A stretch of DNA of 22,538 bases from a virus (lineage: Duplodnaviria; Heunggongvirae; Uroviricota; Caudoviricetes). The translations under genes and the position numbers were made by a program. Numbering within the stretch: position 1 is the stretch's first letter; the number at the start of each line of letters is the position of its first letter. The DNA lies in IMG/VR virus record IMGVR_UViG_2667527827_000002; one strand, written 5' to 3'. Below, piece by piece: positions 16,822-18,738 of this stretch. The notes under the pieces are model-generated. The model was not told the DNA's origin. It ran no database searches and saw only the letters and a program-made list of their open reading frames with translations.

Positions 16822-17184
16822 ATGGCTAGCGAACGCAGTACTGATGTGCAGGCATTTATCGGGGAGCTGGACGGCGGCGTATTTGAAACCAAAATCGGCG
16901 CAGTTCTCAGTGAAGTCGCTTCCGGTGTGATGAACACGAAAACCAAAGGTAAGGTCTCGCTCAACCTGGAAATCGAACCATTTGATGAGAACCGTGTGAA
17001 AATCAAACACAAACTCTCATATGTTCGCCCGACTAACCGCGGGAAAATTTCCGAAGAAGACACCACCGAAACACCGATGTATGTCAATCGCGGTGGTCGC
17101 CTGACTATTCTGCAGGAAGACCAGGGACAATTACTGACTCTTGCCGGTGAACCTGACGGAAAACTACGCGCAGCAGGTCATTAA
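16822..17184 (+). CDS. Hypothetical early-left protein (YfdP-like by size and position)
   Basis: 120 aa from ATG 16822-16824 with GAGGAG 7 nt upstream, TAA at 17182-17184. The track's longer ORF from 16636 lacks an SD and crosses the terminator hairpins. Confidence 0.65.
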   Translation: MASERSTDVQAFIGELDGGVFETKIGAVLSEVASGVMNTKTKGKVSLNLEIEPFDENRVKIKHKLSYVRPTNRGKISEEDTTETPMYVNRGGRLTILQEDQGQLLTLAGEPDGKLRAAGH

Positions 17185-17249
17185 TATCGTTCTTAATTAA
17201 CTGATTATTTATCTCATCACTGAATATCTTTATATAGTGAGGACTGATT

Positions 17250-18074
17250 ATGTCTCATAACTTAGACGCAACCGCAATTAATCAAATCCATGCCCTTATT
17301 TCTGCTCAGGGTGTTAATGAAATCATCAGTAAGATTGGTGCCGATGCTGTGGCATTGCCTGAGAATTTCCGCATTCATGATCTGGAAAAATTTAATTTAA
17401 ATCGTTTCCGTTTCCGTGGTGCGCTTTCCACTGCCAGCATCGATGACTTTACCCGTTATTCTAAAGATCTTGCAGATGAAGGCACCCGCTGCTTTATCGA
17501 TGCCGATAATATGCGTGCCGTCAGTGTGCTTAACCTGGGTACTATTGATGAGCCAGGTCACGCAGATAACACTGCCACTCTCAAACTGAAAAAGACAGCA
17601 CCGTTCTCTGCTCTGTTGTCTGTTAATGGCGAGCGTAACTCCCAGAAGTCACTGGCAGAATGGATTGAAGACTGGGCCGACTACCTTGTGGGCTTTGATG
17701 CTAATGGTGACACCATTCAGGCAACCAAAGCGGCTGCGGCGATCCGTAAAATCACAATTGAAGCGAACCAGACCGCTGATTTTGAAGATAATGACTTCAG
17801 CGGCAAACGCTCCCTGATGGAGTCTGTCGAAGCGAAGACCAAAGACATTATGCCAGTGGCATTTGAATTTAAATGCGTTCCGTTTGAAGGCCTGAAAGAA
17901 CGTCCATTTAAATTACGCCTCAGCATTATCACTGGCGATCGTCCTGTACTGGTTCTGCGCATTATTCAGCTGGAAGCGGTGCAGGAAGAAATGGCTAACG
18001 AATTTCGTGATCTGCTTGTTGAGAAATTCAAAGACAGCAAAGTAGAAACCTTTATTGGTACTTTCACCGCCTGA
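17250..18074 (+). CDS. DUF2303-like phage protein (YfdQ-like)
   Basis: 274 aa. ATG 17250 with GAGGA 7 nt upstream. Same length as CPS-53 YfdQ as I recall it, and it is followed by an HD-domain YfdR-like gene. Confidence 0.75.
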
Positions 18075-18086
18075 TTTCATTACTGC

Positions 18087-18109
18087 AAATGCCCCTGCGG
18101 GGGCATTTA
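18087..18109 (+). terminator. Hairpin, possible attenuator or terminator between the YfdQ-like and YfdR-like genes
   Basis: aaatgcccc-tgc-ggggcattt perfect 9-bp stem with 3-nt loop (18087-18107). The U residues are part of the stem, so termination efficiency is uncertain. Confidence 0.4.
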
Positions 18110-18201
18110 TGGAAACGTAATTAACTCAATAATCACCGAATGGTGAGGGCTTCCTTTTACCAGAATTCAGCGCGGTGCAGTGCATATACGTGGAGAACAA
18201 A

Positions 18202-18738
18202 ATGTCATTTATTAAAACTTTTTCCGGGAAGCATTTTTATTATGACAAGATAAATAAAGACGACATCGTTATTAACGATATCGCGGTTTCCCTTTCAAAT
18301 ATCTGTCGCTTTGCAGGACATCTTTCACACTTCTACAGCGTCGCCCAACATGCGGTGCTTTGCAGCCAGCTGGTACCGCAGGAATTTGCTTTTGAAGCGT
18401 TAATGCATGATGCAACAGAAGCATATTGTCAGGACATCCCCGCACCACTGAAACGCCTTCTTCCTGACTATAAACGGATGGAAGAAAAAATAGACGCCGT
18501 AATCCGTGAGAAATACGGGTTACCTCCTGTTATGAGCACGCCAGTGAAATATGCCGATCTCATTATGCTGGCAACCGAACGCCGCGATCTCGGGCTTGAT
18601 GATGGTTCTTTCTGGCCTGTACTGGAAGGTATCCCGGCGACAGAGATGTTCAAAGTTATTCCACTGTCACCAGGCCATGCCTACGGGATGTTTATGGAAC
18701 GTTTTAACGAGTTATCGGGGTTACGCAAATGCGCATGA
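18202..18738 (+). CDS. HD-domain 5'-deoxynucleotidase-like protein (YfdR-like)
   Basis: 178 aa from ATG 18202 with GGAG 6 nt upstream. HD motifs …FAGHLSHFYSVAQHA… and …ALMHDATEAY… Length equals CPS-53 YfdR as I recall it. Confidence 0.8.
   Translation: MSFIKTFSGKHFYYDKINKDDIVINDIAVSLSNICRFAGHLSHFYSVAQHAVLCSQLVPQEFAFEALMHDATEAYCQDIPAPLKRLLPDYKRMEEKIDAVIREKYGLPPVMSTPVKYADLIMLATERRDLGLDDGSFWPVLEGIPATEMFKVIPLSPGHAYGMFMERFNELSGLRKCA

Follow-up and report, generated by a model that had tools for sequence, protein, structure and literature searches.

The yfdP-yfdQ-yfdR locus

The window, by which we mean the whole stretch of 22,538 nucleotides that was analyzed, carries three consecutive genes on its plus strand: yfdP, yfdQ and yfdR (Table 1). 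The open reading frame list bore out the sizes of 120, 274 and 178 residues given in an earlier note on this DNA, together with the gene order, and its view that these are counterparts of a K-12 cluster proved right. BLASTP against b2359–b2361 of Escherichia coli K-12 MG1655 (proteins drawn from NC_000913.3) returned the identities listed in the table, which come to 99% for YfdP and for YfdQ and 98% for YfdR. Where the earlier note went astray was in having the cluster led by an HD-domain enzyme; yfdP comes first and the HD gene, yfdR, is third and last. Of 5426 complete E. coli genomes, 3026 contain the DNA of the 2.2-kb cluster at 95 to 99% identity, with the genes labelled yfdP, yfdQ and yfdR, and 49 phage records match it as well, with mEp460, SfV, cdtI and Stx2c phages among the carriers. 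Judged by such matches, all three are real, conserved genes and not chance reading frames, and the sequence settles which genes they are. The cluster is already known and catalogued, one of its members has been characterized in part, and it is among the commonest prophage gene sets of E. coli.

The window is itself a scaffold. Ten Ns at 5716–5725 mark a join, and what the earlier note took for an intact prophage is represented here only in part, with this gap cutting it. The idea of a defective prophage abutting ydbA was dropped once this gap had been found.

Table 1. Features of the yfdP-yfdQ-yfdR region, in window coordinates
Feature	Position	Strand	Basis or remark
cI-type Peptidase_S24 repressor gene	15461–16135		Pfam
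Intrinsic-terminator-like hairpin and T-run	16147–16170	+	Directly 3' of repressor gene
Candidate pL with two operator-like palindromes	16174–16218	+	Promoter scan
Predicted untranslated leader of yfdP operon	16202–16821	+	620 nt
GC-rich terminator-shaped hairpin and U-run	16638–16686 (hairpin 16638–16678)	+	RNAfold
Conserved structured RNA	16678–16801	+	124 nt; RNAalifold, covariance model
yfdP	16822–17184	+	120 aa from ATG; 119/120 identical to K-12 YfdP
yfdQ	17250–18074	+	274 aa, DUF2303/PF10065; 271/274 identical to K-12 YfdQ
Intercistronic hairpin AAATGCCCC-TGCG-GGGGCATTT	18087–18108	+	Between yfdQ and yfdR; read from sequence
yfdR	18202–18738	+	178 aa from ATG, HD-domain phosphohydrolase; 174/178 identical to K-12 YfdR
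Mosaic yfdS-like gene	18729–19316	+	195 aa; overlaps yfdR stop by 10 nt

An early-left operon with its native controls

Directly after the repressor gene comes the terminator-like hairpin, with a 7-bp stem (four GC pairs) and then TTTTTATACT, and after that the candidate pL. The promoter (16174–16201) reads TTGACA, 16 nt, CATAAT, matching the consensus at 11 of 12 positions, and is overlapped by palindromes of the form ATGTA-N9-TACAT at 16180–16198 and 16200–16218, the latter copy with one mismatch. The exact palindrome occurs just twice in the 22.5-kb window, at 16180 and at 15376–15394 in the cI/cro divergent region. The early-left placement proposed in the earlier note is thereby upheld: the cluster lies downstream of an S24 cI-type repressor and a promoter with repressor operators, in the order found in mEp460. 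By position and gene order, then, it is the promoter-proximal part of a lambdoid early-left pL operon.

The kinship with mEp460 is close. Positions 5725–21523 of the window are 97% identical to it in DNA, and the two share the order repressor, yfdP, yfdQ, yfdR, DUF551, DnaQ-type exonuclease, xis. Early-left operons like the one here are found in mEp460, SfV, cdtI, ST64B and LLS, phages of the "no Rec module, high Chi" type (Zheng et al. 2025). The window has 16 Chi sites against 0.7 expected, a count that covers only part of the prophage. Neither an N gene nor Rec genes were seen in the window, and its early-left region showed no SSAP or Exo gene.

The K-12 copy, in CPS-53 (KplE1), has the three genes in equal order and with equal spacing, and its DNA homology corresponds to window positions 16803–18864. 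Missing from K-12 is the stretch 12716–16803, so that it lacks the immunity region and pL as well as the leader RNA, and retains only part of the replication gene. Because of this deletion yfdP there abuts yfdO, the remnant of an O-like gene; the spacer upstream of yfdP is bound by SrsR. Downstream, K-12 has full yfdS and yfdT genes; in the window yfdT is absent, the yfdS-like gene is a mosaic, and DUF551 is found on a protein of its own. All the published work concerns this K-12 remnant, with yfdP driven from an accidental junction. The window's copy retains the native phage control (repressor, pL and leader RNA) that K-12 has lost, and copies of this kind are therefore the right material for studying the phage role of the yfdPQR genes.

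A structured RNA ahead of the first early gene

Plus-strand reading frames of at least 40 residues in the predicted leader number just two, a 49-aa frame and a TTG-extended version of the yfdP frame. Islands of leader sequence stay 80 to 100% identical across genera in which the YfdP and YfdQ proteins are only 56 to 70% identical. K-12 homology starts only at 16803. Within the leader, the terminator-shaped hairpin keeps its shape while its stem sequence varies with taxon (alignments of 32 and 25 loci), and its U-run also forms the 5' base of P1, the helix that comes next, in a conserved structured RNA. P1 joins 16681–16705 to 16755–16779 in a long stem. It encloses P2, a hairpin at 16707–16739 with the loop GGGCUCAUAACCC at 16716–16728, and P3, a variable hairpin at 16740–16753. 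P4, a hairpin at about 16787–16802, follows, and then the Shine-Dalgarno sequence.

RNAalifold gives 42 pairs, 12 of them with compensatory changes; 97.1% of the alignment cells are paired, against 41 to 53% with slid partners, and none of 500 shuffles attains the observed value. Our covariance model scores 121 bits on the plus strand, as opposed to 36 on the minus, and finds a single copy in the window. A search of the leader against Rfam returned no family, whether judged by gathering scores or with the limit relaxed to E ≤ 1. The same RNA also precedes rdgC in other phages, the first gene of its carrier operons being yfdP, rdgC or yfdR.

Like the RNase III hairpin of the λ nutL/N-leader and like HK022 put, this is a structured RNA ahead of the first early-left gene, and the duplex in it, about 23 bp long, looks like a substrate for RNase III. 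Unlike λ, the window offers no N protein to use a nut site. For the N-less phage group to which the window belongs, put-like antitermination has been suggested (Zheng et al. 2025). The put RNAs of HK022 measure about 70 nt, fold into two stems, sit close behind the promoter and exist as a putL and a putR copy (PMC9378689). We considered a put-like RNA here and rejected it: the leader element is 124 nt long, a three-way junction plus a hairpin, single-copy, some 480 nt from pL and past a terminator-like hairpin. Mimicry of initiator tRNA was rejected too. The P2 loop has a 13-nt identity to the anticodon stem-loop of tRNA-fMet, which is missing in the Yersinia, Serratia, Rahnella and Proteus versions. 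ARAGORN reported no tRNA gene in the window and made a tRNA-Ile-like call in the equivalent leader of one other locus (L105).

The leader RNA and the terminator-shaped hairpin that overlaps it may be a new class of cis-control in N-less lambdoid early-left operons, and could conceivably serve readthrough, RNase III processing or translational control. They are a specific candidate for how N-less lambdoid phages pass their early terminators, a question raised in 2025 for this same phage group. Another hairpin lies in the gap between yfdQ and yfdR; it has just three U 3' of its stem, and the terminator scan made no call there.

YfdR and the initiation of replication

RefSeq and PHROGs label YfdR a 5'-deoxynucleotidase or dNMP phosphatase, and the earlier note had said much the same. 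Part of that claim stands. The HD catalytic residues are intact: R36, H69, D70, E73, D78 and D119 never vary among 55 homologues of 46 to 98% identity, and 54 of the 55 retain H50. At E = 2.6e-13 YfdR matches PDB 2gz4 (Atu1052), whose HD motifs line up with H50, H69-D70 and D119; the HD fold of Atu1052 and YfbR is kept, and so are its metal-binding residues H...HD...D. The literature that the note invoked for this protein is also real. Orthology with YfbR is not supported. Against the NCBIfam YfbR equivalog NF003009 the protein scores 19.9 bits, where the cutoff is 122, and its Pfam matches, to YfbR-like and HD_3, are both below gathering (PF12917, 24.3 against 25.9). On these scores YfdR is a distant HD relative, and a YfbR orthologue is excluded. 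The passages of PMC4776307 that deal with the enzyme, citing Zimmerman 2008, place its nucleotide affinities far below those of YfbR, describe its hydrolysis of deoxynucleotides as weak and call its function elusive; in the same passages YfdR differs from YfbR in binding DnaA, which is not known for YfbR.

Might YfdR nonetheless be there for its chemistry? In a nucleotide-pool module it would have been selected for dephosphorylating dNMPs, or modified or damaged nucleotides, during phage growth, its DnaA binding being incidental. The invariance of the catalytic set, which indicates strong purifying selection, favors this reading because a pure DnaA-binding role would not need the HD residues, and the database names and the Atu1052 homology point the same way. 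The low affinities reported in those passages, the failure against the YfbR equivalog and the lack of any further nucleotide-metabolism gene in the operon all weigh against it, and we consider it somewhat unlikely, if the strongest of the competing accounts.

The paper to which the earlier note alludes on DNA replication exists and says what the note ascribed to it (Noguchi and Katayama 2016; PMC4776307). In K-12, multicopy yfdQ and yfdR together with either yfdS or yfdT inhibit initiation at oriC, with yfdP dispensable for the effect. YfdR binds DnaA domain I via Phe46, in moderate competition with DiaA and DnaB, and in pull-downs YfdQ, YfdS and YfdT bind neither YfdR nor DnaA strongly. Deletion of yfdQRST leaves both initiation and hydroxyurea resistance unchanged, the authors allow that the multicopy inhibition may be an overexpression artefact, and deletion of yfdQ brings weak sensitivity to MMS and H2O2 (all PMC4776307). 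With 98% identity to the K-12 protein and its four differences confined to residues 151, 155, 169 and 172, near the C terminus, the window's YfdR would be expected to share both the 5'-deoxynucleotidase activity and the binding to DnaA domain I (Phe46).

The earlier note's claim of inhibition by yfdQRST is partly sustained: the multicopy effect is published, but the deletion has no phenotype, and the window, with no yfdT and only a mosaic yfdS, may fall short of the smallest gene set reported to work. The yfdS-like protein is 52% identical to K-12 YfdS over its first 88 residues, roughly the first 55 being nearly identical; the remainder matches phrog_3205. We found no yfdT homologue in the window, and the DUF551 domain sits on a separate protein of 295 residues.

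Other proteins are known to lower initiation at oriC by binding DnaA, as YfdR does: SirA of Bacillus subtilis, Dps of E. coli and λ P. The SirA contact, at Phe49, is the counterpart of the DnaA Phe46 used by YfdR (PMC4776307). None of the three has sequence or fold kinship with YfdR. λ P, moreover, binds domain III, and the YfdR effect requires partner genes and is seen in multicopy only (PMC4776307).

YfdP and YfdQ, an almost obligatory pair

The middle protein was rightly assigned to DUF2303 in the earlier note. Pfam places it there at E = 7e-93, with 311 bits against a gathering cutoff of 26.6, over residues 7–272 of 274. DUF2303 is a standalone domain of about 274 residues; clustered at 50% identity the family comprises 1780 groups, and none of the best 150 matches listed is a fusion protein. 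A homologue has been solved. PDB 9o7m, entitled "YfdQ Protein", aligns with YfdQ end to end at E = 1e-44 and about 37 to 40% identity, and its sequence record lists 36 chains. It is the DUF2303 protein of Xanthomonas CP2-like phages, the same as YfdQ here in family and length. Our monomer model of YfdQ has a pLDDT of 75.7. A sequence search of the PDB found no relative of YfdP, so 9o7m contains no YfdP homologue. Fold libraries (searched without 9o7m) and family searches gave no match that confers a biochemical activity on YfdP or YfdQ; PADLOC and NCBIfam profiles had no match to either, and no Rad52-like fold was found for them. Our literature search on 9o7m, DUF2303 and PF10065 found no paper on structure or function.

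Among 71 species loci, yfdP lies directly upstream of yfdQ in 69 and yfdR is present in 58; the gap between the first two genes is 65 nt here. Five distant loci, in Xanthomonas CP2, three Vibrio phages and Hahella, carry the pair without yfdR. In CP2 a yfdP homologue precedes the DUF2303 gene as in the window; unlike the window, that phage has no yfdR, and it also carries Erf, exonuclease and SSB genes. (A scan of viral contigs with a YfdQ profile returned only E. coli-type loci of 99% identity, and so did not reveal this diversity.) On these counts the co-inherited core is yfdP-yfdQ, an almost obligatory pair both in Enterobacterales prophages and in these distant loci, with yfdR often present as a third gene but dispensable. 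With the pair as the evolutionary unit and yfdR optional, a reading centered on the nucleotidase is weakened. The focus shifts from the HD enzyme to yfdP-yfdQ, with its wider conservation, its solved but unpublished assembly and its alternation with rdgC, and to two proteins present in thousands of genomes.

That alternation came from 120 viral contigs bearing the leader motif: 48 carry rdgC and 51 carry yfdP, in 47 cases together with yfdQ; no contig has both rdgC and yfdP, and yfdR occurs alongside either. Since that slot never contains both, YfdP–YfdQ may be an isofunctional phage replacement for RdgC, an oligomeric factor directed at DNA or RecA; mutually exclusive occupancy is the only basis of the analogy. 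That the leader RNA with its hairpin is a new cis-control class and, jointly, that YfdP–YfdQ replaces RdgC is a conjunction we put forward tentatively and would not yet bet on.

A neighboring idea is that YfdP–YfdQ is an unrecognized factor for DNA recombination, repair or end binding, for example an annealing or end-protecting oligomer, which replaces the missing Rec module in a Chi-rich phage. It was weighed because of phage neighbors: the CP2 pair lies among Erf, exonuclease, endonuclease and SSB genes, and the pair of Vibrio 44E38.1 among recombinase, RNase T and SSB genes. The 36 chains of 9o7m, the weak MMS and H2O2 sensitivity of the yfdQ deletion (PMC4776307), an early-left region with neither SSAP nor Exo gene in a window of 16 Chi sites, and a slot shared with the RecA modulator RdgC would all fit. 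Yet Zheng et al. (2025) report co-occurrence with full Rec modules, and this, with the lack of a Rad52-like fold, led us to mark the idea down as unlikely.

Less probable still, in our estimate, is that the pair acts early in host takeover or counter-defence, apart from DNA replication, as for instance an inhibitor or sponge of an immune system. The two genes come first after the early promoter, and on this account would be expressed first because they are needed first. Their carriers span several orders and include temperate as well as apparently lytic phages, the two proteins have a mildly acidic pI (5.0–5.7), YfdQ is a large homo-oligomer if 9o7m is a guide, and interchangeable cargo in early-operon slots is typical of accessory genes. 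The silence of PADLOC counts against it only so far as that resource covers defence and not anti-defence proteins. No experiment hints at such a role, and the K-12 phenotypes indicate DNA-damage tolerance and replication (PMC4776307).

We return to the reading we prefer. Taken whole, the locus is very probably a lambdoid yfdP-yfdQ-yfdR segment of the CPS-53/KplE1, SfV and mEp460 type, lying in a pL operon, where it would serve as an early replication or DNA-metabolism module. Once the phage is induced or infects a cell, those pL transcripts which read through the leader terminator would express YfdP, YfdQ and YfdR. The first two probably act jointly as a large oligomer, and the three would together form a module that targets host DNA replication or DNA metabolism early on, with YfdR damping DnaA-dependent initiation and YfdP–YfdQ taking the role that RdgC has in sister phages.

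YfdP itself belongs to PF27127 by precomputed annotation, a family carried by all 120 homologues listed, and it matches phrog_204 at E = 1e-49; our own Pfam search, with a model set that did not include PF27127, gave no match. Its gene has the Shine-Dalgarno sequence GAGGAG 6 nt 5' of the ATG. The protein ends in a conserved tail, EEDTTETPMYVNRGG.LTIL, which is predicted to be disordered in the monomer.

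The genes and what is known of them

The earlier note read 16822-18738 as an early-left YfdP/YfdQ/YfdR-like cluster, and in this it was right. A six-frame ORF list contains all three open reading frames at the sizes, positions and order it gave (see the table), and direct comparison with the K-12 MG1655 reference proteins from NC_000913.3 finds 119/120 residues identical for YfdP, 271/274 for YfdQ and 174/178 for YfdR. The same list holds a TTG-extended version of the yfdP frame beginning at 16636. Of 5426 complete E. coli genomes, 3026 carry the 2.2-kb yfdPQR stretch at 95-99% identity, under the RefSeq gene names yfdP, yfdQ and yfdR; 49 phage records share it, among them mEp460, 1720a-02, Stx2c and Stx2a phages and Shigella phages. 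Pfam places YfdQ in DUF2303 (7e-93), YfdP carries PF27127 in precomputed annotation and the HD/YfbR-like Pfam matches of YfdR are all sub-threshold; the PHROGs families of YfdP, YfdQ and YfdR are phrog_204, phrog_210 and phrog_318, in that order, the last labelled 'dNMP phosphatase'. The cluster is not, as had been claimed, led by the HD enzyme, yfdR being the third gene. yfdQ and yfdR are 127 nt apart, and the gap contains a perfect 9-bp hairpin (AAATGCCCC/GGGGCATTT, 18087-18108, + strand) with no proper U-run after it.

These are genes already known, one of them partly characterised, and what the earlier note says of yfdQRST and YfdR agrees with the published account (PMC4776307). What we consider worth pursuing is not the named genes but a structured leader RNA ahead of them and the alternation of yfdPQ with rdgC behind it.

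Features on the plus strand, from the repressor gene to yfdR
Feature	Position	Strand	Remarks
S24 cI-type repressor gene	15461-16135	+	first of the ordered plus-strand prophage genes
Terminator-like hairpin	16147-16164, plus T-run	+	directly after the repressor gene
pL, candidate early-left promoter	TTGACA at 16174	+	16-nt spacer, then CATAAT; near-consensus
Terminator-shaped GC hairpin with U-run	16638-16686	+	immediately 5' of the structured RNA
Structured leader RNA	16678-16801	+	124 nt; 23-bp stem P1, hairpins P2 and P3, then P4 and Shine-Dalgarno
yfdP	16822-17184	+	120 aa, counted from the ATG after GAGGAG
yfdQ	17250-18074	+	274 aa
yfdR	18202-18738	+	178 aa from ATG

YfdR and replication initiation

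The HD catalytic residues, whose loss the earlier note had named as fatal to its reading, are retained. R36, H69, D70, E73, D78 and D119 are invariant among 55 homologues (46-98% identity), H50 is kept in 54 of the 55, and the HD motifs align with those of PDB entry 2gz4; judged from these alignments, YfdR is an HD protein with its catalytic set intact. Identity as a YfbR orthologue was rejected (19.9 bits against a cutoff of 122).

Noguchi and Katayama (PMC4776307) found that multicopy yfdQ and yfdR together with yfdS or yfdT suppressed over-initiation and inhibited normal initiation at oriC, yfdP being dispensable for that inhibition. Purified YfdR bound DnaA, for which DnaA Phe46 was important, and competed moderately with DiaA and DnaB. 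[quoted passage not shown] Zheng et al. (2025, PMC12315714) describe the yfdR/yfdQ/yfdP trio as common in lambdoid early-left operons with or without a Rec module, from which they argue that a hidden recombination system is unlikely, and list yfdQ and yfdP as without known function. Our window holds no yfdT homologue, and its yfdS-like gene is a mosaic, 52% identical to K-12 YfdS over the first 88 residues only, with about the first 55 nearly identical; the published minimal inhibitory set is therefore incomplete here. The suggestion of a host-replication takeover or nucleotide-pool module stands as a reasonable restatement of published speculation, but it leans on multicopy K-12 data for a gene set that this prophage has only in part.

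A lambdoid prophage that keeps what K-12 has lost

Ten Ns at 5716-5725 mark a scaffold join. The part to their left (1-5715) is chromosomal, with pdxI and an autotransporter gene of the ydbA/BigA type (1069-5703, minus strand); the sequence to their right belongs to a lambdoid prophage contig that matches phage mEp460 at 97% identity across 5725-21523 and breaks off just beyond a methylase gene. The junction of pdxI/autotransporter and prophage at the Ns is absent from all complete E. coli genomes. The prophage minus strand encodes a DNA methylase, DUF968/HNH, KilA-N, RusA, Dam, an O-like replication gene, an Ash/Rha regulator and a CII-like gene. On the plus strand the repressor gene is followed by yfdP, yfdQ, yfdR, the yfdS-like gene and a 73-aa ORF, and then by a 295-aa DUF551 protein, an Rv2179c/DnaQ-type 3'-5' exonuclease and a PrtN-type excisionase. 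The last ORF, past the excisionase gene (21966-22538, minus strand), matches 'Panacea domain-containing protein' genes of other E. coli prophages, Panacea being an antitoxin-type domain.

Sixteen Chi sites (GCTGGTGG) are spread across 2387-20959, against 0.7 expected from shuffles, 14 of them in the prophage from 5784 to 14886. No Rec-module genes were seen in the window, and the two observations fit the lambdoid class that Zheng et al. (2025) call 'no Rec module, high Chi'. On the minus strand, matches to C4 antisense RNA (14030-14117, 82.8 bits) and IsrK (14142-14218, 61.5 bits) exceed the Rfam gathering score. The two fall within or across the 5' portion of the Ash/Rha-type ORF 13430-14578, a region that resembles the antirepressor control region of P1 immI or Gifsy-1.

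The operator-like palindrome ATGTACCCTTGAGATACAT (16180-16198, ATGTA-N9-TACAT) overlaps the pL candidate. The only other exact copy in the 22.5 kb is at 15376-15394, in the cI/cro divergent region, and a one-mismatch copy lies at 16200-16218. Read from sequence, repressor gene, terminator-like hairpin, promoter and palindromes are in the expected oL/pL arrangement, from which we infer transcription.

Homology to CPS-53, the cryptic K-12 prophage, is limited to 11463-12716 (yfdM/N/O) and 16803-18864; the immunity region, pL and the complete leader fall in between and are therefore gone from K-12. Relative to our prophage the K-12 locus (L001) lacks 12717-16802, a deletion with end points at 12716 and 16803 that removes most of the replication gene, the CII-like, cro-like and cI-like genes, pL and the leader. 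In K-12, yfdP abuts the replication-gene remnant, whereas here it keeps pL and leader. SrsR binds the K-12 yfdO/yfdP spacer of repeated 11-mers (PMC9181523); from the end points, this spacer is the deletion junction.

The structured leader RNA

Between pL and yfdP are 620 untranslated nt, the last ~180 of which are 80-93% conserved as DNA, against 56-70% for the downstream proteins. The stem sequence of the terminator-shaped hairpin differs between taxa while its shape is constant, and its U-run doubles as the foot of helix P1. RNAalifold gives the leader RNA 42 pairs, 12 with compensatory changes; 97.1% of cells are paired, against 41-53% with partners slid, and none of 500 shuffles equalled the observed value. 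Invariant U-G pairs and covariance-model scores (121 bits on the plus strand, 36 on the minus) assign the RNA to the yfdP strand. The model finds a single copy per locus, with non-seed members ahead of yfdP in Yersinia, Serratia, Rahnella and, weakly, Proteus; K-12, CP2 and the Vibrio phage gave no hit. Rfam has no matching family. Identity with the HK022 put RNA was rejected, since the RNA falls outside the put definition. By analogy, our working idea is that it may act as an RNase III stem, like that of the λ N leader, or may control readthrough.

Several smaller features deserve mention. The P2 loop GGGCUCAUAACCC (16716-16728, + strand) shares 13 nt with the anticodon stem-loop of E. coli initiator tRNA-fMet, spanning three G-C pairs and the CUCAUAA loop. 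Some 25 loci retain it, with small variants; the versions of the RNA in Yersinia, Serratia, Rahnella and Proteus lack it, so the likeness may be coincidence. Further conserved motifs lie at 16490-16626 (+), where CGTTGTGGTGAAT is complementary to CACCACAAC ~120 nt downstream, with hairpins enclosed. At the position equivalent to these motifs, ARAGORN calls a tRNA-Ile-like gene in Phytobacter ursingii (L105:5316-5394), and some loci have T-loop-like sequences GGTTCGAATCC there. A perfect 15-nt repeat, TGTGGAGAAACTAAC, is shared by the two early operons, each copy in the direction of transcription: at 16771-16785 (+), within the pL leader, it makes up the 3' foot of P1, and at 14581-14595 (minus strand), in the rightward operon, it lies shortly before gene 13430-14578 begins.

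One slot, alternative occupants

At least 120 IMG/VR contigs contain a 16-mer taken from P1, and neighbours were counted in 120 (L160-L279). In 52 of them yfdP follows within 30-50 nt. Of the remaining 68, 61 have the full leader RNA (89-140 bits) before another first gene: an RdgC-family protein in 47, yfdR directly in 2, and others. The leader RNA thus belongs to the early-left leader of this lineage and not to yfdP itself. Over all 120 contigs rdgC is carried by 48 and yfdP by 51, of which 47 also have yfdQ; as occupants of the slot just after the leader RNA, rdgC and yfdP occur together in none of the 120, and yfdR accompanies either alike. Nor is rdgC found in any of 71 yfdQ genome loci.

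RdgC is a DNA-binding ring that modulates RecA, and in mosaic phages mutually exclusive occupants of a slot are often functional analogues. Because occupancy is mutually exclusive here, YfdP-YfdQ may do RdgC's job in these phages. By analogy, and the link is a weak one, the pair may be a RecA-modulating DNA-binding ring like RdgC, or may be RexA-like, as Zheng et al. (2025, PMC12315714) suggested.

The pair itself is a conserved unit. In 69 of 71 species-representative genomes yfdP is immediately upstream of the yfdQ homologue, with yfdR downstream in only 58, and profile searches find the pair, with yfdR missing, in a Hahella prophage, three Vibrio phages and Xanthomonas phage CP2. In CP2 a 511-aa ORF of no assigned function comes next, ahead of genes for Erf, an exonuclease, an endonuclease and SSB; Vibrio phage 44E38.1 has the pair flanked by recombinase/RNase T genes on one side and an SSB gene on the other. 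DUF2303 proteins stand alone, at ~274 aa (1780 clusters at 50% identity), with no fusions among the best 150 matches listed. PDB entry 9o7m, 'YfdQ Protein', is a YfdQ homologue of 36 chains whose sequence is that of a protein of CP2-like Xanthomonas phages (93-99% identity); a literature search found no publication on it. Fold searches with AlphaFold models of YfdP and YfdQ gave no informative match. YfdP is best conserved in the segment EEDTTETPMYVNRGG.LTILQEDQGQL; the monomer model predicts disorder there, which would fit a partner-binding tail.
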